Source: an uncultured Bacilli bacterium (lineage in GTDB: Bacteria > Bacillota_I > Bacilli_A > RF39 > UBA660). From it: a stretch of 64,000 nucleotides of DNA. Of the stretch, positions 2,365-57,023 are shown piece after piece. The first letter of the stretch is position 1. Every line of letters starts with the position of its first letter. Under the pieces are notes generated by a model. That model had not been told where the DNA came from. It did no database searches and worked only from the letters and a program-made list of their open reading frames with translations. The stretch spans positions 328,067-392,066 of the forward strand of contig CAKOXW010000001.1 in assembly GCA_934130375.1 (NCBI GenBank), given 5' to 3'. A program made the position numbers and the translations under genes.

Positions 2365-2847
2365 GTAAATTCTAAATTTGTTATCTTTTATTATTATTAT
2401 CATATTAACAAATTGTGTATCTAATCTTTTATACAATGTATCAACTAATTTTATTGCTTTTTTTATGCTAATTTTTGACCCTGAAATATCAAAAATAAAA
2501 TTATTGCATTGTTTCTTTTTCTTATATATAGCGTGATAAAATGTTTGATTACTAAAACCAACAATTGTTTTCAAATCCCAATAATCACCTCTAAATAAAT
2601 AGTCAGACGTTTGTATTCCGCAAGGGTTATTCACTCTTGGTAACATATACAATTCACCACCAAATGTACATTCTAACCACCTTGCCATTTCTAATTCTTT
2701 TATAGAATAATCCAATATAACATTTTTATTATCTACTTCATACCTAGTCCCATTACATAAAACAGTTCTCAATTCAAGAACCTCATGCGAATTAGGTCTA
2801 ACATTTCTAACCCATTTCTTAGTAACATCTTTATAAGCCTTTTTCAT
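2338..2847 (-). CDS. Hypothetical protein (169 aa), adjacent to tRNA-Arg
   Basis: ORF with no recognisable motif. Its last 7 codons are encoded by the hairpin of the antisense element. Confidence 0.4.
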   Translation of the reverse strand: MKKAYKDVTKKWVRNVRPNSHEVLELRTVLCNGTRYEVDNKNVILDYSIKELEMARWLECTFGGELYMLPRVNNPCGIQTSDYLFRGDYWDLKTIVGFSNQTFYHAIYKKKKQCNNFIFDISGSKISIKKAIKLVDTLYKRLDTQFVNMIIIIKDNKFRIYKKRVRPRC

Positions 2848-3050
2848 AAACCTCCTAAAGAACTAAATAGTTTTCACTTAAATTAAAGACATCACATATT
2901 GATATTAAAAATACCTCTCATTATAATTATTCTAGGTTCACACACCAAATTCCCCTGAAAAATAAAAAAAAGACAAAGTTTTTTGCAAATAACTTTATCT
3001 TAAAATAATATTAGTATTATTTAAGCCCAAGAATACACATAAAATAAATA

Positions 3051-20643: not shown

Positions 20644-21927
20644 TTATTTACACTCTATCTTCTCTATTCCACCCATATATGGTCTTAGAACTTCTGGAAT
20701 AGTTATACTTCCATCTTCATTATAATTATTTTCAATAAATGCAATTAATGCTCTTGTTGATGCTAAAACGGTATTGTTAAGAGTATGTAAATAATAATTA
20801 CCATTTTGTCCTTTTGCTCTTATACCAAGTCTTCTTGCTTGAGCATCACCTAGAGTTGAACATGAACCTACTTCAAAATACTTTTGCTGTCTTGGGCTCC
20901 ATGCTTCTACATCACAAGATTTTACTTTTAAATCTGCTAAATCACCACTGCAACACTCAAGTTGCCTTACTGGAATATTCATACTTGTAAATATTTCAAC
21001 AGTATATCTCCACATTTTTTCGTACCATTCCATACTTTCTTCAGGCTTACATAAAACAATCATTTCTTGTTTTTCAAATTGATGAACTCTATAAATACCA
21101 CGTTCTTCAATTCCATGTGCTCCAACTTCTTTTCTAAAGCATGGAGAATATGAAGTCATAGTAATTGGTAATTTTGCCTCATCTATTAATTCACCTTTAA
21201 ATTTACCAATCATAGAATGTTCTGATGTTCCGATTAAGAATAAATCTTCACCCTCTATTTTATACATCATAGCATCCATTTCTTTAAATGACATAACTCC
21301 ATTAACAACATCACTTCTAATCATAAATGGAGGTATGCAATAAATAAATCCTTTATTAATCATAAAATCTCTAGCATACGCAAGCATAGCAGATGATAAT
21401 CTAGCAATATCTCCCATTAGATAATAAAAACCATTACCTGAAGTTCTTGCAGATGCATCTTTATCAAGACCATTTAACTTATTCATAATATCTGCATGAT
21501 ATGGTATTTCATAACTTGGTACTTTTGCATCTAAAAATCTTTGTACTTCAACATTCTCACTATCATCTTTACCAATTGGTACAGAAGCATCAATTATATT
21601 AGGTATTTTATACATAATATTTTTTATTTTTTCTTCAAGTTCTGCTTCTTCTACTTCAATACTTTCAAGTTCTTTATTAATTAAAACTACTTTATCTTTA
21701 AGTTTTAAACCTTCTTCTTTTTTACCCTCACGCATTAAAGCACCAATATTATCACTAATAGAATTTCTATCTTTTCTATCATTGTCTGCCTTAACTTTTA
21801 ACTCTCTATACCTTTTATCAAGTTCATATACTTCATCAACTAAAGGTAATTTTTCATCTTGAAATTTTTTCTTAATATTTTCTTTTACTAAATCCCTATT
21901 TTCTCTTATTAATTTAATATCTATCAT
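20644..21927 (-). CDS. serS: Seryl-tRNA synthetase
   Basis: N-terminal coiled coil, class II aaRS motifs. The start is probably MIDIKLIR (ATG at 21927), preceded by GGGAGGA. The ORF track extends to 21939. Confidence 0.9.
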   Translation of the reverse strand: MIDIKLIRENRDLVKENIKKKFQDEKLPLVDEVYELDKRYRELKVKADNDRKDRNSISDNIGALMREGKKEEGLKLKDKVVLINKELESIEVEEAELEEKIKNIMYKIPNIIDASVPIGKDDSENVEVQRFLDAKVPSYEIPYHADIMNKLNGLDKDASARTSGNGFYYLMGDIARLSSAMLAYARDFMINKGFIYCIPPFMIRSDVVNGVMSFKEMDAMMYKIEGEDLFLIGTSEHSMIGKFKGELIDEAKLPITMTSYSPCFRKEVGAHGIEERGIYRVHQFEKQEMIVLCKPEESMEWYEKMWRYTVEIFTSMNIPVRQLECCSGDLADLKVKSCDVEAWSPRQQKYFEVGSCSTLGDAQARRLGIRAKGQNGNYYLHTLNNTVLASTRALIAFIENNYNEDGSITIPEVLRPYMGGIEKIECK

Positions 21928-21939
21928 AAATCCTCCCAT

Positions 21940-22133
21940 AAAATAAAAAAGGACAATACCATAGGAACGAATTATCGTGGTACCATCCTAAATTATACTT
22001 AATTAAATAACGGTTTTTAACCGGGCACAAAGCCACTCTGGAGTAGATTCATAAACTCATATAACTAATTTTCACCAACCATTAGTTCTCTTTGATATAC
22101 TCATTTACTACTATGTTCCATCAACGTTTTACA
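21940..22133 (-). promoter_or_regulatory. T-box riboswitch leader (Ser specifier candidate UCU) with terminator
   Basis: Minus-strand T-box sequence AAUUUAGGAUGGUACCACG (plus 21975-21993). Terminator GAUGGUACCA...UGGUAUUGUC plus U6. Stem I AGAGA (plus tctct 22087-22091) and CCAGAGUGG. Possible TTGACA-17-TATTAT promoter at 22140-22168. Confidence 0.7.
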
Positions 22134-22147
22134 TATAAATAATACAT

Positions 22148-22717
22148 TTATTTATCAATATTGTCAATATCAGTACTTAAATAATCAGCAAGTTTATAGT
22201 ATGCATCAGTATTCCATAAACTAAATCTTTCTTTATCAGGATAATTTGCAAGAGTTTTATCGCATCCATCAGGTATAAAGATAAAATCCCAACTCCATCC
22301 ATATTTACCACTTTTCTCTTTTGCAATCGTACCCTTAGTTATCGATTTAAATACAACAGGTTCACAACCATATTTACAATATGCGAACGCTTCTACAAAA
22401 GATGCTCTTCTATTTTCAATACCATCTAGTAGTTTTAATATGCAATCTTCTCCTAATAAATCATCCACATAATGAGTATATGGTCCAGGAAAACCATTTA
22501 GAGCATCTACATATAAACCACTATCATTTTTTAAAACATCACATTTTAATTTACTACTTGCTTCCTTGGCAGAATACATTGCAACCTCTTCTACAGTATT
22601 TGCTTGAATTTCAGTAGTATCCATCTTAACATTATCAATTTCAAAACCAAGAGGACTAAGTATGTTTTTAGCACTTTCTAACTTAGCCCAATTTCCTGTT
22701 ACATATGTTATTTTCAT
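22148..22717 (-). CDS. Non-canonical purine NTP pyrophosphatase (Ham1/RdgB family ITPase)
   Basis: MKITYVTGNWAK...DSGLYVDALNGFPGPY pattern of the Ham1 family. 189 aa. Confidence 0.7.
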   Translation of the reverse strand: MKITYVTGNWAKLESAKNILSPLGFEIDNVKMDTTEIQANTVEEVAMYSAKEASSKLKCDVLKNDSGLYVDALNGFPGPYTHYVDDLLGEDCILKLLDGIENRRASFVEAFAYCKYGCEPVVFKSITKGTIAKEKSGKYGWSWDFIFIPDGCDKTLANYPDKERFSLWNTDAYYKLADYLSTDIDNIDK

Positions 22718-22718
22718 A

Positions 22719-23843
22719 TTACCTACTTTCTAAAACAATTAATGGAACTGTCATTTCTTCTTTTGAAATACCTCCATGGTCCGCAATTAAAGGAGGCTCT
22801 TTTACACCATCAATTGAATATCCTACACTTTTTTTCTTATAAAATACTAAAGTATAATCTCCAAGGTAATCATTTATATTTTGATGTTGTTTTCCTTTAC
22901 CAAACAATCCACTATCCAAAAATTTCTTTTTAGTGTACAAGATATATTCACCTTCAAAATATTTATTCATTGCATTTTTAAATTTATTCTTCATACCCTT
23001 TTTTATAAAAAATGTAACAATTCTTGTTTCAATAGAAGGTGGCATTTTTAAGCAATCATTTATCTCTGGTATTTCATTTATATATATTTCATCAACATTA
23101 ACTGCACCATGGTCTGCAGAAATAATTACAACACTATCTTCTAATTTATCAACTAAGTTTTTTAAATTATTTTCAATATTTTCTAACACTTCTTTAACAC
23201 AACTACATTTAACACCATTATGATGAATTGTATGGTCTGGTTCATTCCAATAAGCAGATATCAAATTTCTATCGTTGTTATTGCAATGATTTTTTATTTT
23301 ATTACATAAATCTTTAAAATCTTCTGCACCATCTTTTTGAATATTTTTCGGAAATACTTTATGAAATTTTATATTCTTATTTTTATTGCATATCTTCTCA
23401 TAAATAGTTTCGTACTCCAAGTTAATACTTTCAGGTCTTTCTATAATTTGTTTTCTTGTATAGAAATCTTTACCAGAGAATAATTCAATTATACTATTAT
23501 ATTTTTTAAAATAAGGCATCCAACCTACCCAACCATTTTCTAAAGGTGATAAACCAGAGTGAAATGCAGTTGTTGCAGCAGCAGTAGTTGGTGGATATAC
23601 AGATGTCACACTTGTTACTATATTTTTTCTTAACAAAGAGTTTTCATCCAAATTTTTTTCAATAATATCAGTACCTAAACAATCTAATATTAAGAATATT
23701 ACATTTCTATATTTTTTTCTTAATATATTATCAAGTTCACTTAATGACTTATAATTAGATTTAACATCATAATTTTTAAGTATTGATGAACTAATTGATA
23801 AAATACTTCTATCATAATTTGGAAAACATATATTTTTATTCAT
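22719..23843 (-). CDS. Alkaline-phosphatase superfamily metalloenzyme (phosphodiesterase/phosphomutase-like)
   Basis: ILDCLGTD, metal-ligand region VTSVYPPTTAAATTAFHSG, ISADHGA and ADHGG motifs. Confidence 0.6.
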   Translation of the reverse strand: MNKNICFPNYDRSILSISSSILKNYDVKSNYKSLSELDNILRKKYRNVIFLILDCLGTDIIEKNLDENSLLRKNIVTSVTSVYPPTTAAATTAFHSGLSPLENGWVGWMPYFKKYNSIIELFSGKDFYTRKQIIERPESINLEYETIYEKICNKNKNIKFHKVFPKNIQKDGAEDFKDLCNKIKNHCNNNDRNLISAYWNEPDHTIHHNGVKCSCVKEVLENIENNLKNLVDKLEDSVVIISADHGAVNVDEIYINEIPEINDCLKMPPSIETRIVTFFIKKGMKNKFKNAMNKYFEGEYILYTKKKFLDSGLFGKGKQHQNINDYLGDYTLVFYKKKSVGYSIDGVKEPPLIADHGGISKEEMTVPLIVLESR

Positions 23844-23888
23844 TTAATCATCTCCTAACACTTTTATATTTTCAAATTTTTTTAAAAA

Positions 23889-24569
23889 TTAATTTATTAA
23901 CTTATTTTTTATACAATTAATTTCTTCATTAGAAAGTCCAATAATATTTAAATAATTTTGTATATTATCATATTTTTCATAAAATAATTCAATTGTTTTT
24001 TCCATTGTTTCCATTTCGCTTCTATTTACAAAGAACGGAACATCATAATTTTTATTGTGTTCTTTTCTAGCAAGCATTCTTATATATGTATAACTGACTT
24101 CATAGTCAGCAATAATATCATCATCGTATACATCTGCAAGCATCAAAAGAAGCATGCTAATAATTCCTGTCCTATCTTTCCCTGCTCTGCAATTATAAAT
24201 AACTCCACCTTTAGAATTAGCAATTGTTTTAAATACTAACTTAATGTTATCATAATCATTTATTATATTCATATAACAATTAGGAAAATCATCTTGAGAT
24301 TTAAAAAATTTATTGCCAACTAAATTAATATTATAATAATCAAAATAATCTTTTAAACAATTAGGATTACTAATGCATTCGTCTTTTTTTCTTAAATCAA
24401 TTACTGTCGTGAAATTATTATCTTTTAAAAATTTTATACCATTATCAGTAATATTTGTTGGTAAATCACTTCTAATAAATCTAAGTAATTTTACCTCAAT
24501 ACCATCTTTATTAATAATCCAACCAAGGTCTCTTAAATTGTTATTAGTACCTATCTTATATCTTTTCAT
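23889..24569 (-). CDS. Protein-tyrosine/dual-specificity phosphatase-like protein
   Basis: CX5R P-loop NCRAGKDRTG. Confidence 0.65.
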   Translation of the reverse strand: MKRYKIGTNNNLRDLGWIINKDGIEVKLLRFIRSDLPTNITDNGIKFLKDNNFTTVIDLRKKDECISNPNCLKDYFDYYNINLVGNKFFKSQDDFPNCYMNIINDYDNIKLVFKTIANSKGGVIYNCRAGKDRTGIISMLLLMLADVYDDDIIADYEVSYTYIRMLARKEHNKNYDVPFFVNRSEMETMEKTIELFYEKYDNIQNYLNIIGLSNEEINCIKNKLIN

Positions 24570-24583
24570 TATTGCACCCCCTT

Positions 24584-26023
24584 TTATTTCTTAATATGTT
24601 CCTTTATTTTACTTTTTGCTAGACTTGTTTTAGCAATATCTAACCAGTCCTCTCTAGGACCATAAGATAACTCATTTGTAACTATTCTTACTCTATCTTT
24701 ATTTTGAAGAACATAATGGGCAGGTACATATTCATCATTTACAAATGCTCCAACCATTGTATTACCAATATCTGTATCCAATTTATACGCATAATCTATT
24801 ACTGTTGAACCAATTGGTAATTCTATAATATCTCCTTTTGTTGTATATACATATATTTTATTTGCAAACAATTCATTTTTTACTTGATTTACAAATTGTT
24901 GATTATCTCCAAATATTGAATTTATTTCTATTAATGATTTAAAAAATTGATATTTTTGTTTTAAATCATCTTGCATTACATCTCTTGCTTTCCCTTTTTC
25001 TATATCCCAATATGCAGTTAGTCCAAAAGAAGCAATCTTATCCATATCAAATGTTCTTATTTGTGTTTGAACTAATCTATCTTCAGGACCAAAAACTGTT
25101 GTATGTAAACTTCTATACATATTAGTTTTCGGATTACATATATAATCTTTAAATTTATCATTTATTGGTTTATATTTACTATGCACTAAATACAAGCCAA
25201 TATAGCAATTCTCTATTTCATCTACCATTATCTTAAGTGCTAGTAAATCATGTATATCTGATAATTTATGTCCTTCTGATAATCTTTTATATATTCCATA
25301 AATATTCTTAGTTCTTACCTTTATTTCATTTGGTATATTTCTATCATTTAATAGTGTTTCAATCTTATATAGCATTTCTTTTAAAATATCACCAGAAGTC
25401 TCTTCTAATCTTATCTTTTTTTCCCCAATTCTTTTGTATACATCTGGTTTTAAATACTTTAAAGATAAATCTTCTAATTCAGATTTAATTCTATATGCTC
25501 CAATATAGTACGCAAGTGGGACAAATATTTCCATTGTCTCAAGTGAATTTTCTTTTTGCTTAAATTCAGATTTAAATTCTAATGTCCTCATATTATGAAG
25601 TCTATCTGCAAGTTTAATTATAATTATTCTTACATCATCCGTAATACCTGTTATAATTTTTCTAGTATTTGCATAATTTTGGTCTTGCTTAGAAGAAAAA
25701 TTCATTTTAGCAAGTTTAGTAACACCATCTACTAAATTAGCAACATTTTGATTAAAATCATGAGCAATATCTTCTTTCTTAATATTCGTATCTTCTAGAG
25801 TATCATGCAATAACCCTGCACACACAGTATCACTATCAGCATGCATTTCAGATAGAATATACGCAACATTAAGAGGATGACTTATATATGGTTCTCCACT
25901 TTGTCTTACTTGACCATTATGAAGATAACTTGCATAGTCATATGCCTTTTTAACATCACTTATTGCATCCGGATTATACTCACTTAAATTTTTTAACAAA
26001 TCATCAATTGTAATATTGCTCAT
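24584..26023 (-). CDS. Truncated RelA/SpoT-homologue (HD hydrolase, synthetase and TGS domains; no C-terminal ACT/RRM region), copy 1
   Basis: HD motif HPLNVAYIL..LLHDTLEDT. Synthetase YRSLHTTV. TGS-like IYVYTTKGDIIELP...RIVTN. 479 aa against about 730 for full-length Rel. Near-identical paralogue at 55533..56999. Confidence 0.8.
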   Translation of the reverse strand: MSNITIDDLLKNLSEYNPDAISDVKKAYDYASYLHNGQVRQSGEPYISHPLNVAYILSEMHADSDTVCAGLLHDTLEDTNIKKEDIAHDFNQNVANLVDGVTKLAKMNFSSKQDQNYANTRKIITGITDDVRIIIIKLADRLHNMRTLEFKSEFKQKENSLETMEIFVPLAYYIGAYRIKSELEDLSLKYLKPDVYKRIGEKKIRLEETSGDILKEMLYKIETLLNDRNIPNEIKVRTKNIYGIYKRLSEGHKLSDIHDLLALKIMVDEIENCYIGLYLVHSKYKPINDKFKDYICNPKTNMYRSLHTTVFGPEDRLVQTQIRTFDMDKIASFGLTAYWDIEKGKARDVMQDDLKQKYQFFKSLIEINSIFGDNQQFVNQVKNELFANKIYVYTTKGDIIELPIGSTVIDYAYKLDTDIGNTMVGAFVNDEYVPAHYVLQNKDRVRIVTNELSYGPREDWLDIAKTSLAKSKIKEHIKK

Positions 26024-26041
26024 ATTGCCTCCTTTGAATAG

Positions 26042-26084
26042 AAAAAATCGGCATCAAAACGCATAACACGTTTAGATACCGATT
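26042..26084 (-). terminator. Leader intrinsic terminator (attenuator) immediately upstream of the Rel copy 1 RBS
   Basis: Minus-strand AAUCGGUAUC-UAAACG-UGUUAUG-CGUUU-UGAUGCCGAUU plus U6, then AAAGGAGGCAAUAUG. Confidence 0.6.
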
Positions 26085-26173
26085 GCAACAACAAGATTAC
26101 AGCATGTAAAAAGAAAGCCTTTAAATTCATATTTCTTACAATTTTCTAATTCCACACTTAATCCCTTATTCAT
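26072..26173 (-). CDS. Leader peptide (33 aa) with its stop codon inside the terminator stem
   Basis: RBS GAGAGG, ATG, then MNKGLSVELENCKKYEFKGFLFTCCNLVVAIGI*. It is conserved in frame and register with the copy 2 leader ORF (M-KGL..E..CCN..IG-stop). A TTGACA-17-TAAATT promoter is upstream at about 26203-26231. Confidence 0.5.
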   Translation of the reverse strand: MNKGLSVELENCKKYEFKGFLFTCCNLVVAIGI

Positions 26174-26361
26174 ACAAAAACCTCTCTAATAAAATTAAGT
26201 CTAATTTATCATTTTTATACTTGTATGTCAACACATTTTTATTATTTTTTTACATAAAAATTCACTTGCAAATATATGTATTAAAACCATCTGTTTTACA
26301 AAATACTGTTATAAGAAAATTAGAATTATCTAAATAGTTTTATTCACTAGAAAAGCCTTCA

Positions 26362-27273: not shown

Positions 27274-28545
27274 TTATTTCCTTTTAACCTTATTTTTAAC
27301 CTCTGCATAATTTATAATCGGCAACAAAACTCTACTTAATTTTTCGCACATGTCTGCCTCATATACTTTTTCCTTACAAAAATCAGTTACTTGTATAGTT
27401 TTGATATTAGCACTTTTTGAAGATATTATTCCTCTTTTTGAATCTTCAAAAGCAATACAATTATCGCTCAAAACATTTAATGAGTTGAGCGCCATTTCAT
27501 ATGCATCAGGCGCAGGCTTAAGTCTTTCTACATCTTCTCTTGATACAATAACATCAAAAAGCGTTTCAAGTTTCAATTTATTTAATAACAAATCTATAAA
27601 CTTTCTTCTACTTGTACTTACAAGAGCCAAATTTAAACCCTTATTTTTTAGTTGTTTTAACAATTCAAAATTTATAGTCACTTCATTTTCATCTAATAAC
27701 TCTATAAACTTTTGCTCATACTTTAAATAAACTTTTTGCATAATCAATTCATCAGACACATCATAACCAATTATTTTATCTTCTTTTAATTTTTTTATTA
27801 AATTTGCATTTTGCTTTAATTCATTTTCCTCATATTCTTTATAAGTGATTAGATAATCATAATCAGTTTGTATTACTTCTCTAAAACTTTCAAAAAATTT
27901 TTTTTCACTATTTATTAATGTGCCATCCAAATCAAATAAAATAGTAGTTAATTTTTGTGGAGGCATAGCATTTGTAAAAGTTTTATATGCTGAAAAATCA
28001 CAATAAGGTGAATTTGCATTTTGAAAGTTCAGACTTTTAAATTTTAAAACAAATTCTTTTAACTTATCTTGTAAATAATCAACACTCAAATCATCTTTAC
28101 AATATAATAATTCATATTTAACAAATGTTCCAATGCCATCTACTGTATCAACCATTACATTATATTCAAAATCACCATCATTTTTAGAATATATTACTCT
28201 TGTTTTGTTTACAATGGAATAGCTTAAATAACCCAAAGAAAACAACAAATCACTAATACTTTCGTAATTAGAAATATCTACATTAATACTATTCACTGTC
28301 TTTCCATGATTATTTAAAAAATCCCTAGAAGCTCCTTTGAACGCAACTTCTAGATGTTTATTATCTGTAATACGCATCCTTAAACAAGACCTATTCTTTA
28401 TAAAATTGCCATTAATGTCCACAAAATATTCATCTATCTCAAATTCTTCTTTTACTTTTTTAAGTCCACATTTATTAATAGTACTTAATAATTCATTATA
28501 ACTATCACAATAAAATTTTTCTTCATTTTCAATTTTTTTACTCAT
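27274..28545 (-). CDS. CYTH (triphosphate tunnel metalloenzyme) domain fused to a HAD-superfamily hydrolase
   Basis: N-terminal E-x-E-x-K-F CYTH-like start and LRMRI. C-terminal HAD motif I LFDLDGTL, motif II VSTS, and a Lys/Asp pair. Confidence 0.55.
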   Translation of the reverse strand: MSKKIENEEKFYCDSYNELLSTINKCGLKKVKEEFEIDEYFVDINGNFIKNRSCLRMRITDNKHLEVAFKGASRDFLNNHGKTVNSINVDISNYESISDLLFSLGYLSYSIVNKTRVIYSKNDGDFEYNVMVDTVDGIGTFVKYELLYCKDDLSVDYLQDKLKEFVLKFKSLNFQNANSPYCDFSAYKTFTNAMPPQKLTTILFDLDGTLINSEKKFFESFREVIQTDYDYLITYKEYEENELKQNANLIKKLKEDKIIGYDVSDELIMQKVYLKYEQKFIELLDENEVTINFELLKQLKNKGLNLALVSTSRRKFIDLLLNKLKLETLFDVIVSREDVERLKPAPDAYEMALNSLNVLSDNCIAFEDSKRGIISSKSANIKTIQVTDFCKEKVYEADMCEKLSRVLLPIINYAEVKNKVKRK

Positions 28546-28607
28546 ATAAACCTCTTAATTTAATCTTCTATATTTCAAATATTGATTTAAAACTAATCTA
28601 AAATACA

Positions 28608-29657
28608 TTAGATATTGTTTTTTATAATCAAAAGAATACTATTAATTTCTTTTAAATCTTTGTTATTTATAATTATTGATTTTTTTAAATCAACTTTATT
28701 TTTCTTAATTACTTGATTTAGTGATTCATCATCATTATATATAATATTATTTATCTTAATATTCATTTTTCCAAAAAAATGAGTAAAGAATACTTTATTT
28801 GTTTTTGTTATAAACAATTTATTTTGAGGAAGTTTATCAAGTAATTGCATCGCCACCAATAATTCTTTTGAATCAAATATTACATTGTTTAAATAGTCAT
28901 CAATATAGGACATTACAATTGGACATAACTCATCATTTTTTCTGAATAAACCCCATTTAATAGTTTTCTTATAATCATTACTAAATTTTTCCTTATATTT
29001 TTTATAAAAATCCTTTTCATATTTAAAAAGAAACTCATCTAAACAAATATATATATTCTCTATCTTTTCTTTAGGTTTAATCTTTTTAAATTTGTAATCA
29101 GCAACAACATCTCTATATGGTCTTGTTTCTTCTTTTAAATTAAATTCAGAAAAAGAATTTACAAATTTTCTTAATGCAATGTTTAATTCTTCTTTTTTTG
29201 ATTCTTCTTGTTCGGAAATAATTTCAAATTCAATAAAACCGCCTATATTTGGTAATGTATCAATCATTATGCTATACCTATATTTTTCATCAGTTTTAAA
29301 GAAAGTATATCTTTCTTTTTCAACTTTGCAGTATGAATAAAATCCTAATGAAGTAAATAAACTAACAAAGTTGTCATATTCATTTATATCTGCTGATATA
29401 TTATTTTCTAATTTACAATATTGACCCAAAAGTGATGAAGATTTCCCCTTGAAAGTTATTTCCATATCTTTATTATTAGTCTTACGAATTCTAAGACATG
29501 TCCTGTTTTCAATAAATTCACTATCAATATCTGTAAAATATTCATCATTTTCAATTTTAATAGGTAATTCTATAAACTTCATATTTTTTATTTTTTCAAT
29601 TATCTTTTTGGGGTTAAAATAATAATATTTTTGTTCAGTTTCTACTTTTATTTTCAT
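28608..29657 (-). CDS. CYTH-domain protein, paralogue of the adjacent gene, with a divergent C-terminal domain
   Basis: The N-terminus aligns with 27274..28545 (..ENDEYFTDIDSEFIENRTCLRIR..). The C-terminal 170 aa are unassigned. Confidence 0.45.
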   Translation of the reverse strand: MKIKVETEQKYYYFNPKKIIEKIKNMKFIELPIKIENDEYFTDIDSEFIENRTCLRIRKTNNKDMEITFKGKSSSLLGQYCKLENNISADINEYDNFVSLFTSLGFYSYCKVEKERYTFFKTDEKYRYSIMIDTLPNIGGFIEFEIISEQEESKKEELNIALRKFVNSFSEFNLKEETRPYRDVVADYKFKKIKPKEKIENIYICLDEFLFKYEKDFYKKYKEKFSNDYKKTIKWGLFRKNDELCPIVMSYIDDYLNNVIFDSKELLVAMQLLDKLPQNKLFITKTNKVFFTHFFGKMNIKINNIIYNDDESLNQVIKKNKVDLKKSIIINNKDLKEINSILLIIKNNI

Positions 29658-45172: not shown

Positions 45173-45222
45173 GAAAAAAAGATAAAAATCTATCTTTTTA
45201 ACAATCTAAATTAAAATATCAA

Positions 45223-46340
45223 TTATTCACAAGCATTAACAACAACATTACTTGGAAAACTATAATTACCATCTTCCATAATTGGATTACCTCTAAACGC
45301 ATTACAACCAAGCGTTATTGGTGTATCAGGAAATGTAATTGAAGTTATTTGATTATTTTCAAAAGCATTGATACCTATTTCGGTAATACTTGATGGTATT
45401 GTAATATTTGTTAATTCATTACCAAAAAACGCATTTCTATATATACTTGTTACTGTATTAGGTATCACTACCGAAGTTATTCCTAAACCCGAAATCGATA
45501 TGGAAAGTGGTTTAACCACGTAATTATTAGAATTATAACTTAATAAACTTACTTTATAATCATTATTATAAGCAGTAAGTGTTGGTATAATACCTCCTGT
45601 TGTAAATGCATTATCTCCAATAGTAACAACTGTCTTACCATCTACTTGTGATGGTATTACTACATCAGTTCCTCCAGCAATATTATAACCTGTTATTTTT
45701 ATACCTTCTGTTGCATCTACTTTTAATCCTATAGTTTCATAACTATAATCCTCTAGAGTTGAAACTTCAAGTGCTAAATCGTTAACAGTAAGAGTCTTAT
45801 TATTTATTGTTAGTGAACCCGTTGTACAAAAAGTATTGGCTTGTGCTTCAGTACAACCAACTGGATTTTGCATAAACGTTTTACATTTGTCTATATCTAC
45901 AATTTCAGCACTATGAATTATTGGTGTATCTTCATAACTAAAATACTTAGTAGCAGTTTCAGCAATTTCTTTCTTAGCACTTGCTTTGGCACTATCCTTA
46001 GTGCCATCTACTACTTGTAAACCTTCAAACTTACCTTTACCTACTATTGATACTTTTGCATTTCCCTTATCATCAAAAGTAATATTACAACTTTCATAAT
46101 CATTTGAATTTATCTTAGCAACATCACTACATTTTATTGTACTACTACCATCTAATACTTGATTTTCAGTATATTTCTTTTCAGCCTGACTTGCTATTAA
46201 CTTTGCAGTTGTTTCTAATGATGCCTCCTTAGAATTTTTAATTACATCACTTATTTTTGGCATTGCAATAATTAGTATAACTGCCAAAATAACTATTACT
46301 GCTAATAATTCTACTAAAGTAAAACCCTTCTTTTTCTTCA
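45223..46340 (-). CDS. Type IV pilin-like protein fused to BspA-type leucine-rich repeats (copy A)
   Basis: Start at MKKKKG/FTLVELLAVIVILAVILIIAMP (ATG 46340, RBS AGGAGGAG). C-terminal LRRs (TSVVIPNTVTSI..., ITIPSSITEIG..., ITSITFPDTPITLG). The ORF track's upstream start is unlikely. Confidence 0.7.
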
Positions 46341-46378
46341 TAATCTCCTCCTTATTATACAAGGTTATTATACTATAC

Positions 46379-46388
46379 ACCCCCCCCC
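46379..46388 (-). repeat. Homopolymeric tract (C10 on plus, G10 on the coding strand) in the promoter spacer of pilin-LRR copy A
   Basis: It lies between the -35-like TTGTCA (complement of 46392-46397) and TAGTAT/TATAAT -10-like elements, about 45 nt upstream of the RBS. Confidence 0.7.
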
Positions 46389-46786
46389 ATTTGACAATGG
46401 GCGAGGGCGTTTTTTAGGCCTATTTTTGACATATTTTTACACAAAATTTGATATTTTATACTAAAACGACCACTTTTTAACTAATTATTACGGGATTTTA
46501 CATGTATTCAAAATAATACTAAAATCCCGTATGTGATTGAAAATATAATTAAAATAGTTATTATGAATATGTGAAGAAAGTCTTAATAAAATATAAAAGA
46601 AACACTTAACCAGTAATTAGGTGTTGCTTTACAACAAAACTAATCCTTATGATTAGACATTTTTTATATTCTACTAAAGATAGTGAACTATAAATAATAG
46701 AAGAGTAAGCACTAATAGAAGAATTGTAAAATCCTTCACCATGCACATACCTCATTTCATTTTTATAAGAAGTAGGCAATCAATAA

Positions 46787-48058
46787 TTAACATGATTCAC
46801 CAATAACATTATTAGGAAAACTATAACTATCATCATTTATAATTGGATTATCTCTAAATGCATCACAACCAAGCATTATTGGTGTATCAGGAAATGTGAT
46901 TGAAGTTATTTGATTATTTCTAAATGCATAAGCACCTATCGAAATAACACTATTTGGAATTGTTACACTTGTTAATTGATTGCCACTAAAAGCATAGTCA
47001 CCTATTTTGGTAATACTTGATGGGATTTCCACATTTGTTAATTTGTTACCATAAAATGAATTTTCACCTATACTTGTTAAAGTACTTGGCATTACTACTG
47101 AAGTAATTCCTAGACCATCACCTGTATTACTATCATAAAATGCCTTATCTCCAATAGCAACAACTGCCTTACCATCTATTTGTGACGGTATTACTACATC
47201 TGTTCCTCCACCATTTTCGTATGTTATCTTCAATCCGGCATTCTCATAGTCACTTGATGGTATATCTCCTGAGATAACATCTTTTTGAATTGTATATCCA
47301 TCAACCTCACCTCTACTGCAATAATTATTTGATTGTTCCTCATCATAAGAAAAATTTGTTTGAACATAATTTTTGCACTTATTTTCATCTACTACTTCAA
47401 CATTACATATTGTTCCAATTTCAAATCCTGTTATTGAAATACCATCTATTGTTTCTACTTTTAATCCTGCTGTTTCATAGTCACTTGATTGTATTAAATT
47501 AAGTGATACTGTATCTTGTAAACTCGAACCATTAACTGCTTGATCAGTTGTACATAATGTTGTTACTTGTTCTTCGGTTAATTTAAATTTAGATTGAATA
47601 TAACTTGTACATTTAGCAGTGTCTTCGACAATAACATTAGATACTACAGGTATGTCTACATAACTAAAATACTTAGCCTCAGTTGAGCAATCACTAGTTA
47701 TAGATGCACTATTCTTACTTGCATTACATACAGCCATACCTTCAAACTTACCCTTTCCTACTATTGATACTTTTGCATTTCCCTTATCATCAAAAGTAAT
47801 ATTACAACTTTCATAATCATTTAAACTTATCTTAGCAACATCACTACATTTTATTGTACTACTACCATCTAATACTTGATTTTCAGTATATTTCTTTTCT
47901 GCTTGACTTGCTATTAACTTTGCAGTTGTTTCTAATGATGCTTCCTTAGAATTCTTAATTACATCACTTATCTTAGGCATTGCAATAATTAGTATAACAG
48001 CCAAAATAACTATTACTGCTAATAATTCAACTAAAGTAAAACCTCTCTTTTCCTTCAT
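46787..48058 (-). CDS. Type IV pilin-like protein fused to BspA-type leucine-rich repeats (copy B)
   Basis: The N-terminal 110 aa are about 95% identical to copy A. The central region is divergent and Cys-containing. LRR C-terminus. RBS GAGGAGGAA. Confidence 0.7.
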   Translation of the reverse strand: MKEKRGFTLVELLAVIVILAVILIIAMPKISDVIKNSKEASLETTAKLIASQAEKKYTENQVLDGSSTIKCSDVAKISLNDYESCNITFDDKGNAKVSIVGKGKFEGMAVCNASKNSASITSDCSTEAKYFSYVDIPVVSNVIVEDTAKCTSYIQSKFKLTEEQVTTLCTTDQAVNGSSLQDTVSLNLIQSSDYETAGLKVETIDGISITGFEIGTICNVEVVDENKCKNYVQTNFSYDEEQSNNYCSRGEVDGYTIQKDVISGDIPSSDYENAGLKITYENGGGTDVVIPSQIDGKAVVAIGDKAFYDSNTGDGLGITSVVMPSTLTSIGENSFYGNKLTNVEIPSSITKIGDYAFSGNQLTSVTIPNSVISIGAYAFRNNQITSITFPDTPIMLGCDAFRDNPIINDDSYSFPNNVIGESC

Positions 48059-48107
48059 AATTTCCTCCTCTATTATACAAGGTTATTATACTATACACCC
48101 CCCCCCA

Positions 48108-48116
48108 TTTGGCAAT
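48108..48116 (-). repeat. Homopolymeric tract (C9 on plus, G9 on the coding strand) in the promoter spacer of pilin-LRR copy B
   Basis: Same promoter context as copy A. The -35-like hexamer is TTGCCA here. Confidence 0.7.
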
Positions 48117-48220
48117 GGGAGAGGATGTAAATAGACATAACTTTACATGCAATTTGCAAATTAATATACAAATCTTATAATCTTTAACATATAAATTTAT
48201 AAAAATGTAATATAAACTAT

Positions 48221-51989: not shown

Positions 51990-52022
51990 AAATTCTCACT
52001 CCTTGTTCTTCTATATTTTACT

Positions 52023-52135
52023 AAAAAAAAGCACTTATTACAATAATAATAACTATTTTCTTTTTATAACATACTAAAATATCACCTACACAAAAGAAAA
52101 AACACTATAAAGTGTCTATTCATTTTTCAATCTCA
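52023..52135. repeat. About 113-bp intergenic repeat element, copy 1 (copy 2 at 57266..57378)
   Basis: AAAAAAAAG(C/T)ACTTATTACAATAATAATAACTATTTTCTTTTTATAA...ACACTATAAAGTGTCTAT(T/C)CATTTTTCAATCTCA. About 90% identity between the copies. Contains the hairpin CACUAUAAAGUG. Confidence 0.7.
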
Positions 52136-53142: not shown

Positions 53143-53319
53143 TTAACCATTGTAACACATTTGAAATGCTATCGGGCATCCAACTTGACATGACATACAT
53201 AAATGGCAAGTATCTCCATCAGCAATAACTCCTGTTTCAATAACAAAGTTGTCATTTGTTATTTGTAATATTTTTATTGATTTATCAATCTAACCACATG
53301 TTCTATCAATTATTTTCAT
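53143..53319 (-). pseudogene. Cys-rich micro-ORF with an in-frame TAG, translationally coupled (ATGA) to the upstream gene
   Basis: MKIIDRTCG-TAG-IDKSIKILQITNDNFVIETGVIADGDTCHLCMSCQVGCPIAFQMCYNG-TAA. The ATG overlaps the TGA of 53316..54404. Confidence 0.35.
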
Positions 53320-54404
53320 AATAAGCCACCCTTATACATTTTTTTCATTATTTTAATATTATTTTGCATATTAGTATTGTAATTTAATAAAATATATAAA
53401 ATTTCTTCTATTTTTGCATCTGGATTTATTAATTCAGATGCATTTAAAATCATTGATTTATATAAATTTTTTATTTTTGTTTCACTTATTCCATTTAAAT
53501 AACTAGCTACTGAATCTGACCAATTACAATTTTTATTATGCCATCTTAAATTATATAAAATTAGTAATGCCTTATATTCTTTCAATAATTTTTTTTCATA
53601 TTGATTTTTAGCATTTTTTAAATCCATATTTAAATAGGGATTAGCTATAAATGATAATCTTTTATTTGAAGATATTGCTGCCAAATAATTCATAAAATAC
53701 ATTGCAAATAATTGATGATTACTAGCAATATAAATTTGATTTTGTTCTTGCATTAAATTAAAATAATTACTCCAAATAAAATCAACATCAATATTAAATA
53801 TTCCTTCACGTGTGTCAATTTCAAATCCTGTATTTCTACCTTTAGAAATAAGAATATCGCTATTTTTGAAATTTTTACTTAATTCCTTCATTTCCTTTTC
53901 TAAAAACAATGGACATATAGACGGGATAATTGTTTCATCCCTTATCTCAAGAACTAATGACTTCTCTTGATATTTTTTACATTCTTTACCACAGTGATTG
54001 CATATTATTTTTCCATTTTGTCTAGTGTATAATTTTTCATTATTAATAGATTCACATAGCATATCAACACGACCACATTCACATCTTATTGTTTCTTTGG
54101 TTTTAACTTTTATAAAACCATCATAATACATTTTTTCAATTATATTTAGTAATTCATCACTATAATTTTTATCAATAAAAACAGAATCATAGTTTATGCC
54201 TGAATTATTAACATAACTCAAATAACTGTTTAAATTAACATCTTTATTTTCATAACTATGTATTGTATTAAATCCAATATTCTTTTTAATTGATAGTGAT
54301 GACCCAATATAGTCCATTATGGTTGGTGATATCATCATCCCAATATTTGTTTCTTGTTGCGGTTTAATTGGCAAAGTTAAAATTATTGTATCTTGTTTAT
54401 TCAT
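53316..54404 (-). CDS. Hypothetical protein (362 aa) with a double CxC/CxxC zinc-knuckle
   Basis: RCECGRVDMLC...CNHCGKEC. Overlaps the nucleotidyltransferase gene by 8 nt. Confidence 0.4.
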   Translation of the reverse strand: MNKQDTIILTLPIKPQQETNIGMMISPTIMDYIGSSLSIKKNIGFNTIHSYENKDVNLNSYLSYVNNSGINYDSVFIDKNYSDELLNIIEKMYYDGFIKVKTKETIRCECGRVDMLCESINNEKLYTRQNGKIICNHCGKECKKYQEKSLVLEIRDETIIPSICPLFLEKEMKELSKNFKNSDILISKGRNTGFEIDTREGIFNIDVDFIWSNYFNLMQEQNQIYIASNHQLFAMYFMNYLAAISSNKRLSFIANPYLNMDLKNAKNQYEKKLLKEYKALLILYNLRWHNKNCNWSDSVASYLNGISETKIKNLYKSMILNASELINPDAKIEEILYILLNYNTNMQNNIKIMKKMYKGGLL

Positions 54405-55536
54405 TTGTCATACCTCCTAAAAATTTATAACACATATCATACAATTTTTTCTTATATAAATTCAAATCGTCTAATATATTATTTTTATTAAAAATTCTTT
54501 TATAATCATTATTGATATCTACAAGATTCAGTAAATCATTTGAATGAGAACTCAAATCGATTTGTTTTAAATCTAGTATATACTGTAAATCTTGAATGAC
54601 ACCCAAATATTTATAAAAGTAAATAAATATTTTTTTGTCTAATTTTTTACTATTTGAAAAAAAACAATCAATAGTAAATTCATTAACATCTTTTTCCATT
54701 CTAAAATCGATAGCTAATAATTTATAAAAATTAAATAATACACATGTTTTATAAATAGATTTTAATTCACAATTTTTTATTTTATTAATTGAAGAATCTA
54801 TATATATATTGTTTTTACTAATGTCTTCTATTAAATCTTTTTTAAATTTTTGAATATTACTTAAATCATTACATACTTTTCTTTGTAAATCAAATATGTT
54901 TTTATACTCATTTGAATAAATAAATTTAAAACAATAAGTCCATTCATTAATACAATCTTTTGTATCGTTTGAATTTAAATATTTTATAACATCATTTAAA
55001 TTTCTAGTTGAATTATACATTTCAAATAACAATTTTTTAGAATTTTCTCTACATGGTATATTTAAAATTCCATCATCAAATACTAATTTATATAAATTAT
55101 CATTTTGTAAATTTAATCTTTTATTTGATATTAATGGTAAATAAACTACCAAACTATGTATTTTATCTTTCCCTCTAAATTTTAAAACCTCTTGTATAAT
55201 AAAATTGATTTTATCTTCAATATCAATAATATTTTTATAATCACAACTACATGTTAGATAATTTATATCAACATCGCTAAATAAAGTGTTTGAATTTCTT
55301 CCTAGACTTCCACTAAGAGTAATACAAAAATCAATTTTATATATTTTTTTGAATTCATTTGCCAATTCTTGTATCATCCGAATTATATAATTTCTATATC
55401 TCATATTAATATCAACGAAATCTTTAATCGTTATTTTTTTATAAATATTTACATATTCATTTCTCAAATTAATTATTCTATTTTGATATTTTTGAATGTA
55501 TTTTAGTTTGATTTTTTCATAATCCAATATTTTCAT
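54397..55536 (-). CDS. Polymerase-beta superfamily nucleotidyltransferase (379 aa) with a helical C-terminal domain
   Basis: LSGSLGRNSNTLFSDVDINYL matches the G-S-x9-13-D-x-D core. The start overlaps the Rel copy 2 stop (ATGA). Confidence 0.55.
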   Translation of the reverse strand: MKILDYEKIKLKYIQKYQNRIINLRNEYVNIYKKITIKDFVDINMRYRNYIIRMIQELANEFKKIYKIDFCITLSGSLGRNSNTLFSDVDINYLTCSCDYKNIIDIEDKINFIIQEVLKFRGKDKIHSLVVYLPLISNKRLNLQNDNLYKLVFDDGILNIPCRENSKKLLFEMYNSTRNLNDVIKYLNSNDTKDCINEWTYCFKFIYSNEYKNIFDLQRKVCNDLSNIQKFKKDLIEDISKNNIYIDSSINKIKNCELKSIYKTCVLFNFYKLLAIDFRMEKDVNEFTIDCFFSNSKKLDKKIFIYFYKYLGVIQDLQYILDLKQIDLSSHSNDLLNLVDINNDYKRIFNKNNILDDLNLYKKKLYDMCYKFLGGMTNE

Positions 55537-56999
55537 GCTTTATCACCATTTTCAACTAATAATTTTCTATTAAATTCTTTTAATTTCTTTTTAGCCAAGC
55601 TAGTTTGAGCTTTCTCTAACCAGCCCTCCCTAGGACCATAAGATAACTCATTTGTAACTATTCTTACTCTATCTTTATTTTGAAGAACATAATCAACTGG
55701 TACATATTCATCATTTACAAATGCACCAACCATTGTATTACCAATATCTGTATCCAAATTATACGCATAATCTATTACTGTTGAACCTTTTGGCAACTCT
55801 ATAATATCTCCCTTTGTTGTATATACATATATTTTATTTGCAAACAATTCATTTTTTACTTGATTTACAAATTGTTGATTATCTCCAAATATTGAATTTA
55901 TTTCTATTAATGATTTAAAAAATTGATATTTTTGTTTTAAATCATCTTGCATTACATCTCTTGCTTTCCCTTTTTCTATATCCCAATATGCAGTTAGTCC
56001 AAAAGAAGCAATCTTATCCATATCAAATGTTCTTATTTGTGTTTGAACTAATCTATCTTCAGGACCAAAAACTGTTGTATGTAAACTTCTATACATATTA
56101 GTTTTCGGATTACATATATAATCTTTAAATTTATCATTTATTGGTTTATATTTACTATGCACTAAATACAAGCCAATATAGCAATTCTCTATTTCATCTA
56201 CCATTATCTTAAGTGCTAGTAAATCATGTATATCTGATAATTTATGTCCTTCTGATAATCTTTTATATATTCCATAAATATTCTTAGTTCTTACCTTTAT
56301 TTCATTTGGTATATTTCTATCATTTAATAGTGTTTCAATCTTATATAGCATTTCTTTTAAAATATCACCAGAAGTCTCTTCTAATCTTATCTTTTTTTCC
56401 CCAATTCTTTTGTATACATCTGGTTTTAAATACTTTAAAGATAAATCTTCTAATTCAGATTTAATTCTATATGCTCCAATATAGTACGCAAGTGGGACAA
56501 ATATTTCCATTGTCTCAAGTGAATTTTCTTTTTGCTTAAATTCAGATTTAAATTCTAATGTCCTCATATTATGAAGTCTATCTGCAAGTTTAATTATAAT
56601 TATTCTTACATCATCCGTAATACCTGTTATAATTTTTCTAGTATTTGCATAATTTTGGTCTTGCTTAGAAGAAAAATTCATTTTAGCAAGTTTAGTAACA
56701 CCATCTACTAAATTAGCAACATTTTGATTAAAATCATGAGCAATATCTTCTTTCTTAATATTCGTATCTTCTAGAGTATCATGCAATAACCCTGCACACA
56801 CAGTATCACTATCAGCATGCATTTCAGATAGAATATACGCAACATTAAGAGGATGACTTATATATGGTTCTCCACTTTGTCTTACTTGACCATTATGAAG
56901 ATAACTTGCATAGTCATATGCCTTTTTAACATCACTTATTGCATCTGGATTATACTCACTTAAATTTCTTAACAAATCGTCAATTGTAATGCTATTCAT
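55533..56999 (-). CDS. Truncated RelA/SpoT-homologue (HD, synthetase, TGS), copy 2
   Basis: Nearly identical at nucleotide level to 24584..26023 apart from the last 25 codons. Start chosen at MNSITIDD (ATG 56999, RBS GGGAGG). The ORF track's TTG at 57035 lies inside the leader terminator. Confidence 0.8.
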   Translation of the reverse strand: MNSITIDDLLRNLSEYNPDAISDVKKAYDYASYLHNGQVRQSGEPYISHPLNVAYILSEMHADSDTVCAGLLHDTLEDTNIKKEDIAHDFNQNVANLVDGVTKLAKMNFSSKQDQNYANTRKIITGITDDVRIIIIKLADRLHNMRTLEFKSEFKQKENSLETMEIFVPLAYYIGAYRIKSELEDLSLKYLKPDVYKRIGEKKIRLEETSGDILKEMLYKIETLLNDRNIPNEIKVRTKNIYGIYKRLSEGHKLSDIHDLLALKIMVDEIENCYIGLYLVHSKYKPINDKFKDYICNPKTNMYRSLHTTVFGPEDRLVQTQIRTFDMDKIASFGLTAYWDIEKGKARDVMQDDLKQKYQFFKSLIEINSIFGDNQQFVNQVKNELFANKIYVYTTKGDIIELPKGSTVIDYAYNLDTDIGNTMVGAFVNDEYVPVDYVLQNKDRVRIVTNELSYGPREGWLEKAQTSLAKKKLKEFNRKLLVENGDKA

Positions 57000-57023
57000 C
57001 CAATACCTCCCTTGAATAGAAAA

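Follow-up and report, generated by a model that had tools for sequence, protein, structure and literature searches.

A translated, cysteine-rich leader ORF ending in an intrinsic terminator precedes truncated Rel genes of uncultured gut Bacilli and may act as a ribosome-occlusion attenuator

A stretch of 64 kb from an uncultured Bacilli bacterium (contig CAKOXW010000001.1; G+C 25%; hereafter the window, always at its full length) carries two copies of a gene for a truncated Rel protein, each preceded by a short leader open reading frame (ORF) that ends inside the hairpin of an intrinsic transcription terminator. The same arrangement recurs before Rel in related genomes from the gut and, to judge from this conservation, the leader is a real conserved cis-regulatory element, missed by annotation pipelines and by Rfam, even if our reading of its mechanism should prove wrong. 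That reading, in which our confidence is only a little above even, is of a cysteine (Cys)-gated transcription attenuator that would work by ribosome occlusion, in the manner of Escherichia coli pyrBI.

Both Rel copies and all the features of their leaders lie on the minus strand, and in the 5′ to 3′ direction each has a promoter, a 5′-untranslated region (5′ UTR) of about 25 nt, a Shine–Dalgarno sequence (SD), the leader ORF, a hairpin, a run of T residues and, some 20 nt later, the SD and start of Rel. The copy 1 promoter (26231..26203) is formed by TTGACA and TAAATT, separated by a 17-nt spacer and with a TG before the −10 hexamer; the copy 2 promoter (57245..57217) has the same hexamers, spacer and TG. 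The leader SD (AGAGAGG or AAGAGG) is found 7 nt before the leader ATG in both copies; in copy 1 the initiation region, hereafter S1 (26170..26187), comprises the SD AGAGAGG at 26187..26181 and the ATG at 26173..26171. The copy 1 leader ORF (26173..26072) is formed by 33 codons plus TAA and codes for the peptide MNKGLSVELENCKKYEFKGFLFTCCNLVVAIGI, with Cys codons at 26140..26138 and, as a tandem pair, at 26104..26099, and the copy 2 leader ORF (57187..57050) by 45 codons plus TAA, with Cys codons at 57121..57119 and a tandem pair at 57106..57101. The copy 1 terminator (26040..26084) consists of a 39-nt hairpin (26084..26046), with the arms AATCGGTATC-T-AAACG and CGTTT-T-GATGCCGATT, and the T-run; the 37-nt core of this hairpin has a folding energy of −18 kcal/mol and is present in the minimum free energy (MFE) structure of the entire leader (ViennaRNA). 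The copy 2 terminator (57018..57062) likewise consists of a hairpin (57062..57024; −18.6 kcal/mol) and a T-run. In both copies the leader stop codon, TAA, lies in the 5′ arm of the terminator, at 26074..26072 in copy 1 (+9 nt from the start of the hairpin core at 26083) and at 57052..57050 in copy 2, and its position within the arm is identical (GGT-RTC-TAA-ACG). An earlier sequence-only reading of the window had described a leader ORF and a hairpin/U-run terminator before each Rel, with the stop codon at the same place in both 5′ arms, and its description and coordinates are correct for both copies. A simple terminator scanner called no terminator at the Rel leader of copy 1 or copy 2, because each hairpin has a 1x1 internal mismatch and an upper stem poor in G-C pairs; the Rel-leader terminators were therefore taken from ViennaRNA folds. 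Rel starts with the ATG at 26023 in copy 1 (24584..26023; 479 aa), where it is the first gene of its operon, and with the ATG at 56999 in copy 2 (55533..56999), where it is followed by overlapping genes for proteins of 379 and 362 aa.

The two copies are 97.3% identical from the Rel gene through the 5′ end of the hairpin, with one compensatory A-U to G-C change in the hairpin between copy 1 and copy 2, and 86% identical across the promoter and the leader's first codons. Over its middle part the leader can hardly be aligned between them, and the indels there total 36 nt, a multiple of three.

Relatives were collected by a scan for homologues of the Rel protein, with one genome per species, which gave 80 loci (L001–L080). 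Rel identity to these relatives is 69–86%, with one locus, L078, at 48%. All 80 loci come from metagenome-assembled genomes (MAGs) of uncultured gut Bacilli, ‘Tenericutes’ or Mycoplasmatota, including Mycoplasma sp. CAG:472, Mycoplasma sp. CAG:611, Clostridium sp. CAG:710 and Candidatus Faecisoma. For each locus, the 260–330 nt before the Rel start were read. The input to our pipeline was formed by 77 related loci with a Rel start and the two window copies, and 71 leaders passed; L006 and L064 were left out as their upstream DNA was short, and L029, L035, L039 and L060 as the automatic ORF or terminator calls failed or were unreliable. Inspection by eye found the leader present in L035 and L060, and absent from L061, where Rel lies directly behind rpoC, and from the distant L078. 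In L035 (OZ007038.1, about 2790..3010) the leader ORF, again by eye, has no stop in the hairpin and reads through the terminator into the Rel start in another frame, as does E. coli pyrL.

The 71 leaders represent 65 distinct peptides and 32 clusters that blastn does not link, and the same layout recurs across all of them: an SD-ATG ORF of 19–67 codons ends inside, or at the edge of, a terminator hairpin just before the Rel SD. A promoter-like motif was detected in 66 of the 71 leaders, with 26–35 nt between the end of the −10 element and the leader ATG in nearly all, and in nearly all loci a hairpin (−5 to −27 kcal/mol) and a T-run are found directly 5′ of the Rel SD, the stem sequences being unrelated. 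The leaders are thus conserved in other genomes and do not owe their likeness to chance after a recent duplication, as the sequence-only reading had allowed they might; judged by these sequences, the architecture is no by-product of Rel duplication. It is also specific for Rel. A scan for hairpins of −9 kcal/mol or below, with at least five T residues, in which an SD-ATG ORF of 15–90 codons ends and which have a gene no more than 90 nt away, found two cases in the 64-kb window, both before Rel; on the two strands of the 80 related loci it found 47, 47/47 upstream of Rel. No non-Rel gene in the window or in the 80 loci was preceded by the same architecture, which leaves no gene with an understood logic, such as cysS, for calibrating the polarity of the device.

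The leader frame bears the marks of translation. It is open from the ATG to the terminator in all 65 distinct leaders, as compared to 4/65 for the +1 frame and 0/65 for the +2 frame, and over 2561 leader codons there is no stop in frame, as compared to 280 and 399 in the other two frames, where stops make up 11–16% of the codons. In comparison with L003 and its kin, two genomes of the largest cluster, those with loci L077 and L071, lack one A just after the ATG and have one additional A 36 nt further on; twelve residues are replaced (KRFYNGIIRFNQK versus KDSIMELLDLIKK), and the frame, the downstream Cys codon and the position of the stop are all recovered. The open frame in 65/65 leaders, together with the compensated −1/+1 indels, argues that it is the translation of the leader ORF that is under selection, and not the sequence of the peptide, which would be free to vary. 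The proposal that the ORF is selected for translation despite divergence at the nucleotide level is thus borne out. An alternative genetic code, with UGA read as Trp, was considered since relatives are labelled Mycoplasma or Tenericutes, and was rejected: of 44 long ORFs in the window, 6 end with TGA, each with only a short in-frame extension, and TGA is a stop codon in this organism.

A translated ORF could also be a gene in its own right, for a Cys-rich small protein or peptide precursor, in which case the hairpin would be a leaky terminator that sets the ratio of peptide to enzyme. The good SD and ATG and the Cys content would suit such a gene, a leaky terminator after the precursor gene is common in operons for peptide natural products, and a C39-like peptidase is coded for downstream in a few loci. 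However, peptides of 19–67 residues in 32 unalignable clusters show no common motif beyond Cys, their C-terminal residues are set by whichever hairpin sequence is present, and the compensated frameshift rewrites 12 residues in two genomes; moreover, the leader SD is sequestered at equilibrium (see below), and Rel is the only constant neighbour, the genes downstream varying freely. We regard a functional peptide as very unlikely.

A striking feature of the leader peptides is their content in Cys, which makes up 8.4% of the residues, as compared to 1.5% in the long ORFs of the window, a 5.7-fold enrichment; for every other amino acid the enrichment is 1.6-fold or less. The enrichment follows the reading frame, with 214 TGY triplets in frame versus 42 and 121 in the other two, and TGC and TGT are used about equally. 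At least one Cys is found in 64 of the 65 peptides and tandem Cys in 25. The Cys codons are also unevenly placed: their density is 15–19% of codons between −45 and −16 nt from the hairpin, and 3.4% between −15 and +14. A ribosome stalled in the Cys-rich zone would come to rest immediately before the terminator's 5′ arm, which would be left free to fold. The Cys codons, from which the sequence-only reading had derived a possible dependence on Cys-tRNA supply, gain in weight from this in-frame enrichment and from a peak at the place where a stalled ribosome would stop short of the hairpin. The consequences of stalling were examined in constrained partition-function folds, with a ribosome footprint from −15 to +14 nt around each Cys codon. 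With the ribosome at a Cys codon that lies at least 17 nt upstream of the hairpin, the terminator had a probability of 0.82 or higher, as compared to 0.62–0.90 for Cys codons at −14/−12 and less than 0.6 from −8 inward; in copy 1 it remained at 0.93 despite a ribosome parked at the upstream Cys codons.

In classical amino-acid attenuation of the usual polarity, a stall at the Cys codons under starvation would lead to read-through, and Rel and the genes downstream would be induced. This requires a structure that competes with the terminator, and none was found, either in the folds with a parked ribosome, by the energy of the duplex between the 5′ arm and the upstream leader as compared to shuffled arms (mean z +0.11) or by comparing cognate with non-cognate leaders (p 0.57), a negative that rests on the mean over the 65 leaders, the power of the test for a single sequence being modest. 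As controls we used thrL, trpL, hisL and leuL, which have real antiterminators, and pyrL, all taken from the annotated genome of E. coli K-12; in the same test the z values were −3.1 for thrL, −0.95 for trpL, −0.75 for hisL and −1.8 for leuL, as compared to +1.33 for pyrL. The stop codon's position separates the same controls. The ORFs of thrL, trpL, hisL and leuL stop 27–67 nt before their terminators, and that of pyrL 26 nt past its terminator, whereas in the 71 Rel leaders the stop codon lies between −9 and +29 nt from the start of the 5′ arm. On both counts the sequences of the Rel leaders resemble pyrL and not the trp type. From the stop codon to the predicted release site, set at 8 nt after the stem, the median distance is 33 nt, which we infer to be about what a ribosome directly behind the polymerase can reach, given the footprints summarised in PMC4824070. 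The classical polarity is that of the known Cys-codon leaders, uORFC-8-2 of cysS (PMC8632094) and the mycobacterial polycysteine small ORFs (sORFs; 10.1101/834739), and it would fit the sulfur-related genes of some Rel operons, for phosphoadenosine phosphosulfate (PAPS) reductase in L009 and for S-adenosylmethionine (AdoMet) synthetase in L076, as well as the extra Cys codons present at −15 to +17 in about one quarter of the leaders, at which a stalled ribosome would cover the 5′ arm. Nevertheless, the missing antiterminator, the terminator that still folds with a ribosome upstream, the stop inside the hairpin, and the depletion of Cys in the zone from which a ribosome would occlude it make this alternative distinctly unlikely. 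With no antiterminator, the sole means of suppressing the terminator that would be encoded in the leader sequence is a ribosome on the 5′ arm.

A search of the whole window with Rfam at gathering thresholds returned only a tRNA, and a search of 21900..26300 at E ≤ 1 found no match, T-box included, in the Rel leader. The latter search revealed a T-box leader on the minus strand at 21960..22133, between the Ham1 gene and serS (92 bits, as compared to a gathering score of 93; E 5.9e-20), which is missed at the default Rfam cut-off. That this organism uses T-boxes makes a different device before Rel more notable.

In addition to the terminator, a long-range helix recurs between S1, with the leader SD and AUG, and a segment, S2, that lies 1–45 nt upstream of the terminator. 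As compared to shuffled S1 sequences, the S1:S2 duplex has a mean z of −1.77, with p ≤ 0.05 in 32 of the 65 leaders. When each S1 was set against the pre-terminator 50 nt of every other cluster, a comparison that controls for a purine- or pyrimidine-rich composition, the cognate duplexes were the more stable (−13.7 versus −10.0 kcal/mol; Wilcoxon p 1.3e-6), and the cognate S2 was the best of 32 in 10 cases and among the top three in 17. RNAalifold analysis of the largest cluster recovered the terminator, in which there are compensatory changes, as well as the AUG:CAU part of the helix and an internal hairpin (GUGYUAG/CUAACRY). At equilibrium, the unpaired probability is 0.30 for the leader initiation region and 0.48 for that of Rel (p 9e-5), so that the latter is not strongly sequestered. 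In copy 2, S2 (57083..57067; GAAUUAUGCAAAAAUUA) pairs with the SD/AUG region at 57197..57181 (−13.5 kcal/mol, z −2.94, p 0.005) and the helix is also present in the MFE fold. The corresponding segment is deleted in copy 1, leaving only a weaker pairing with the Cys box; there, the predicted partner of the SD/AUG region is an S2 at 26092..26107 (ACAUGCUGUAAUCUUG) that holds the tandem Cys codons, and in the MFE fold the Cys box of S2 is paired with leader codons 4–8. Seen from its sequence, the helix may restrict the translation of the leader to one co-transcriptional round, and it may tie read-through to the speed of ribosome loading; it may also be a pause hairpin, melted by the arriving ribosome as a Cys codon enters the A site.

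The helix bears on how the Cys codons themselves are read. The conserved Cys codon is usually found in the 5′ part of S2, within a YCAUGY box in which CAU is the partner of the start codon; of the 29 occurrences of the YATGY box among the cluster representatives, 21 are in the Cys frame. A Cys-Cys-Asn box is present in both window copies (TGC TGT AAT and TGC TGC AAT) and its conservation had been taken as a sign of selection on translation. This stands in so far as the box is indeed kept in both leaders and Cys is enriched in the relatives, but part of it is explained by the pairing of CAUGC with the leader start. We considered the box as an RNA-pairing element alone, which is partly true, as it does pair with the start region; however, Cys still represents 6.8% of the codons after those that follow CA, and so belong to the CAUGY pairing box, are dropped.

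Taken further, the same observations could mean that the element is purely RNA-based, a leader that binds a ligand or a protein and so controls the terminator, the ORF being incidental. The long-range helix, the internal hairpin of the largest cluster and the terminator do account for most of the leader. Yet an incidental ORF would hardly stay open in every leader while stops fill the other frames, nor would paired indels restore its frame or the Cys box keep to the frame in most of its occurrences; in addition, no conserved sequence core is shared across the clusters, there is no antiterminator, and Rfam gave no match at E ≤ 1. An element of RNA alone is, in our view, highly improbable.

We therefore favour, with the reserve stated above, the Cys-gated occlusion attenuator, which would work as follows. 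Transcription would start about 25–30 nt before a leader ORF with a good SD, and a ribosome that loads while the leader is being made would trail the RNA polymerase along an ORF that is open right into the hairpin. If it keeps pace, the ribosome would lie over the 5′ arm, or over the stop codon in that arm, as the U-run is made; the hairpin would not form, and Rel and the genes downstream would be transcribed (ON). A ribosome delayed at the Cys codons between −45 and −16 would stop short of the hairpin, and the terminator would fold (OFF). With no ribosome, the SD and AUG would be locked in the S1:S2 helix and the terminator would form (OFF), later rounds of leader translation being blocked. 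The predicted polarity would thus be ON with Cys-tRNA available and OFF with Cys-tRNA limiting. Both mechanistic steps have an experimental precedent in E. coli: when a stop codon was moved from 28 to 5 bp before a terminator, termination fell from about 90% to less than 10%, in a manner that required translation (PMC4824070), and a polyproline stall upstream of the pyrL hairpin raised termination 26-fold without elongation factor P (EF-P; PMC5021804). The translation-coupled attenuator put forward in the sequence-only reading therefore agrees with the leaders in its layout, its open frame, the enrichment and position of Cys, and the lack of an antiterminator; we infer from these the suppression of the terminator by ribosome occupancy, and likewise the direction of the response, charged tRNA-Cys as the probable signal, a probable reliance on coupling between ribosome and RNA polymerase, and a regulatory part for the SD/AUG helix.

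Several points weigh against the attenuator so described. A single Cys is found in 16 of the 65 peptides and none in that of L026, and a stall at the extra Cys codons of about one quarter of the leaders, at −15 to +17, would cover the hairpin and have the opposite effect to the one proposed. The conserved Cys codon overlaps the CAUG box, where constraints from coding and from pairing are inseparable, and in copy 1 the S1:S2 duplex is weak (−9.4 kcal/mol, z −0.73). All the genomes compared are metagenome-assembled. Occlusion needs the first ribosome to be close behind the RNA polymerase; in Bacillus subtilis the polymerase has been reported to outrun the ribosome, and an RNA polymerase–ribosome expressome has been seen in Mycoplasma pneumoniae. 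Lastly, the known Cys-codon leaders, those of cysS in Rhodobacterales and of the mycobacterial sORFs, are ON under Cys limitation (PMC8632094; 10.1101/834739).

The leaders poor in Cys would suit a general sensor of translation capacity. With the same occlusion architecture, such a device would measure whether a ribosome loads before the SD and AUG are sequestered and then keeps pace with the polymerase; its inputs could be the pool of free ribosomes, the speed of elongation, inhibitors of translation or, as in pyrBI, a polymerase speed that depends on nucleoside triphosphates (NTPs), the Cys codons being slow codons that set a baseline. The SD/AUG helix, which is the best supported RNA feature after the terminator, would create the kinetic window for initiation, and pyrL, which is the closest architectural analogue, senses polymerase speed and not an amino acid. 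But the 5.7-fold in-frame enrichment of Cys, with no other amino acid above 1.6-fold, the tandem Cys of 25 leaders and the sharp peak in position are hard to explain unless the decoding of Cys matters, and we give a sensor of this kind some, though a small, chance of being right.

With a promoter-proximal ORF preceded by an SD, a frame that is kept while the peptide varies, a terminator before the structural gene and one amino acid over-represented, the element belongs, by its sequence features, to the broad class of ribosome-mediated (leader-peptide) transcription attenuators. In the pyrBI (pyrL) and pyrE leaders of E. coli, as in the Rel leaders, the ORF runs into or through the terminator, there is no antiterminator, and read-through needs, or in the Rel leaders would need, a ribosome close behind the polymerase. 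There is, however, no sequence relationship, the lineage and the regulated gene are different, the Rel-leader stop is usually inside the hairpin, and the SD and AUG of the Rel leader are sequestered by a long-range helix of its own. The signal would differ as well: pyrL senses uridine triphosphate (UTP) through pausing of the polymerase, whereas the Rel leaders are enriched in Cys codons, which suggests an input different from, or additional to, NTP-sensitive pausing. The trp, his, leu and thr attenuators share with the Rel leaders a promoter-proximal ORF with an excess of codons for one amino acid, and an intrinsic terminator between this ORF and the structural genes, but their mutually exclusive antiterminator and their stop codon 27–67 nt upstream of the terminator have no counterpart here. 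In the erm, cat and ABC-F resistance leaders of Firmicutes, which are found in low-GC Gram-positive relatives, the behaviour of the ribosome on a short ORF decides, as it would here, the fate of a terminator; those leaders rely on specific arrest motifs and on an antiterminator that is freed by the stalled ribosome, in contrast to the hypervariable peptides of the Rel leaders, which have no antiterminator. The vmlR leader is an example of this arrest-motif/antiterminator type (PMC9226507).

Closest in codon content are the cysS uORFC-8-2 of Rhodobacterales (PMC8632094) and the mycobacterial polycysteine sORFs (10.1101/834739), in which the supply of Cys-tRNA is sensed through a short ORF upstream that contains Cys codons, in many cases tandem ones; an intrinsic terminator likewise stands at the end of uORFC-8-2 (PMC8632094). 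These leaders control cysteine metabolism or cysS, and have been proposed or shown to be ON under Cys limitation. The mycobacterial sORFs, moreover, are leaderless and the stalled ribosome acts on the next gene's ribosome-binding site, whereas the Rel leaders have a 5′ UTR and an SD, and tandem Cys in only 25 of 65. The Rel leaders thus differ from the known Cys leaders in the Rel-family target, the SD, the stop inside the terminator, the lack of an alternative structure and the opposite predicted polarity. A full-text search of the literature, which does not cover all journals, returned no report of a leader peptide before a rel gene, or of the regulation of the stringent response in this lineage, in line with the earlier remark that no such leader was known for rel genes.

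The protein under this control differs from a long Rel. By Pfam, copy 1 Rel has the HD_4, RelA_SpoT and TGS domains only, in 479 aa, and its alignment with B. subtilis Rel stops at residue 483 of the 562-residue deposited chain (6yxa). To judge from its sequence, Rel is here without the C-terminal ribosome-binding domains and is not a long bifunctional RelA/SpoT homologue. Residue 319 of copy 1, a Gln, aligns with the catalytic Glu of the synthetase (Glu324 in B. subtilis; E323 in RelSeq), the motif being LVQTQIRT in the window Rel and PLEVQIRT in B. subtilis Rel. VQTQIRT, or a variant with one residue changed, is found in both window copies and in all but a few of the 80 loci, the exceptions being three or four at which the motif search matched an unrelated QIRT and the Rel motif itself was left unread; the distant L078 has VQAHIRT. 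The HD motif of the hydrolase is intact; LLHDTLED was recovered in most loci, with LLHDTIED or LLHDVLED in some. According to PMC13299517, which cites Hogg et al., the E323Q substitution abolishes the synthetase activity of RelSeq. On the strength of this one residue, these Rel proteins may be hydrolase-only enzymes. The sequence-only reading had spoken of the truncated Rel as an alarmone synthetase, which it probably is not, the catalytic Glu being replaced by Gln in the window copies and in nearly all the 80 loci. For a hydrolase-only Rel, the proposed polarity would be sensible, as production of the hydrolase would be confined to times of good translation.

Each genome sampled has different genes behind Rel; Pfam analysis of 20 downstream genes gave unrelated functions and no common operon theme. 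Within 3 kb downstream there are genes for a class II aminoacyl-tRNA synthetase-like protein, Trp/Tyr-tRNA synthetase, Leu-tRNA synthetase, pyridoxal phosphate (PLP) decarboxylases, PAPS reductase, an archaeal-type AdoMet synthetase, an ABC-F protein, a DUF402 protein and transketolase. None of nine window neighbours of Rel had a match by tblastn in the 80 loci. Several MAGs, like the window, have two leader-Rel modules; the closed relative OZ007038.1 contributes both L028 and L035. In the window, copy 1 Rel is followed 3′ by genes for a Y_phosphatase3 protein, a phosphodiesterase-family protein and Ham1, and then by serS with its own T-box. The two genes after copy 2 Rel (53316..55536, minus strand), for the 379- and 362-aa proteins, are without Pfam matches. 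Inspection by eye shows a GS...DxD motif that recalls Pol-beta-type nucleotidyltransferases in the 379-aa protein, and CxC...CxxC motifs in the 362-aa protein. Upstream of copy 1, two adjacent genes on the minus strand (27274..29657) look like a paralogous pair with CYTH-like N-termini; Pfam finds CYTH and HAD domains for 27274..28545 only, and the likeness of 28608..29657 was judged by eye. The substrates of CYTH domains are triphosphorylated, and this may be of relevance beside a Rel-family gene. A 130-nt intergenic repeat, 91.5% identical, is found just 5′ of the copy 2 leader promoter (57252..57378) and just 5′ of hisS (52006..52135); it includes a small hairpin and, after it, a T-run, and could be a terminator, present in repeated form, of the gene before it. 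A second local duplication (46021..46406 with 47738..48124, and 45218..45368 with 46779..46929; 95% and 86% identity) spans the ends and upstream regions of two adjacent paralogous genes, for proteins of 385 and 423 aa.

Rel enzymes are normally controlled at the protein level, by binding to the ribosome and detecting uncharged tRNA. In this uncultured gut lineage, a Rel without ribosome-binding domains carries instead a conserved, translated leader that ends in a terminator. A tentative picture, which we put forward as possible and rather doubtful, is that in a lineage of gut Mycoplasmatota with reduced genomes Rel may have lost its ribosome-binding domains and the catalytic Glu, and that the sensing of translation would have moved to the Cys-gated occlusion attenuator; a hydrolase-type Rel and its operon would be made only when Cys is decoded at full speed, and loss of charged tRNA-Cys would stop the hydrolase and allow alarmone to accumulate. 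If true, the stringent response would here be wired in a new way, and the polarity would be the reverse of that of all known Cys-codon leaders. The attenuator itself, should it work as proposed, would be a natural and widespread case, outside the enterobacterial pyr genes, of a terminator controlled purely by ribosome occupancy, and would offer a clean test of transcription–translation coupling in this branch of the Bacilli/Mycoplasmatota; the 32 independent sequence versions of one device are material for reporter and in vitro studies. Finally, an attenuator that works as proposed would show how unculturable gut bacteria with reduced genomes may couple alarmone metabolism to translation and to the supply of cysteine, that is, of reduced sulfur.

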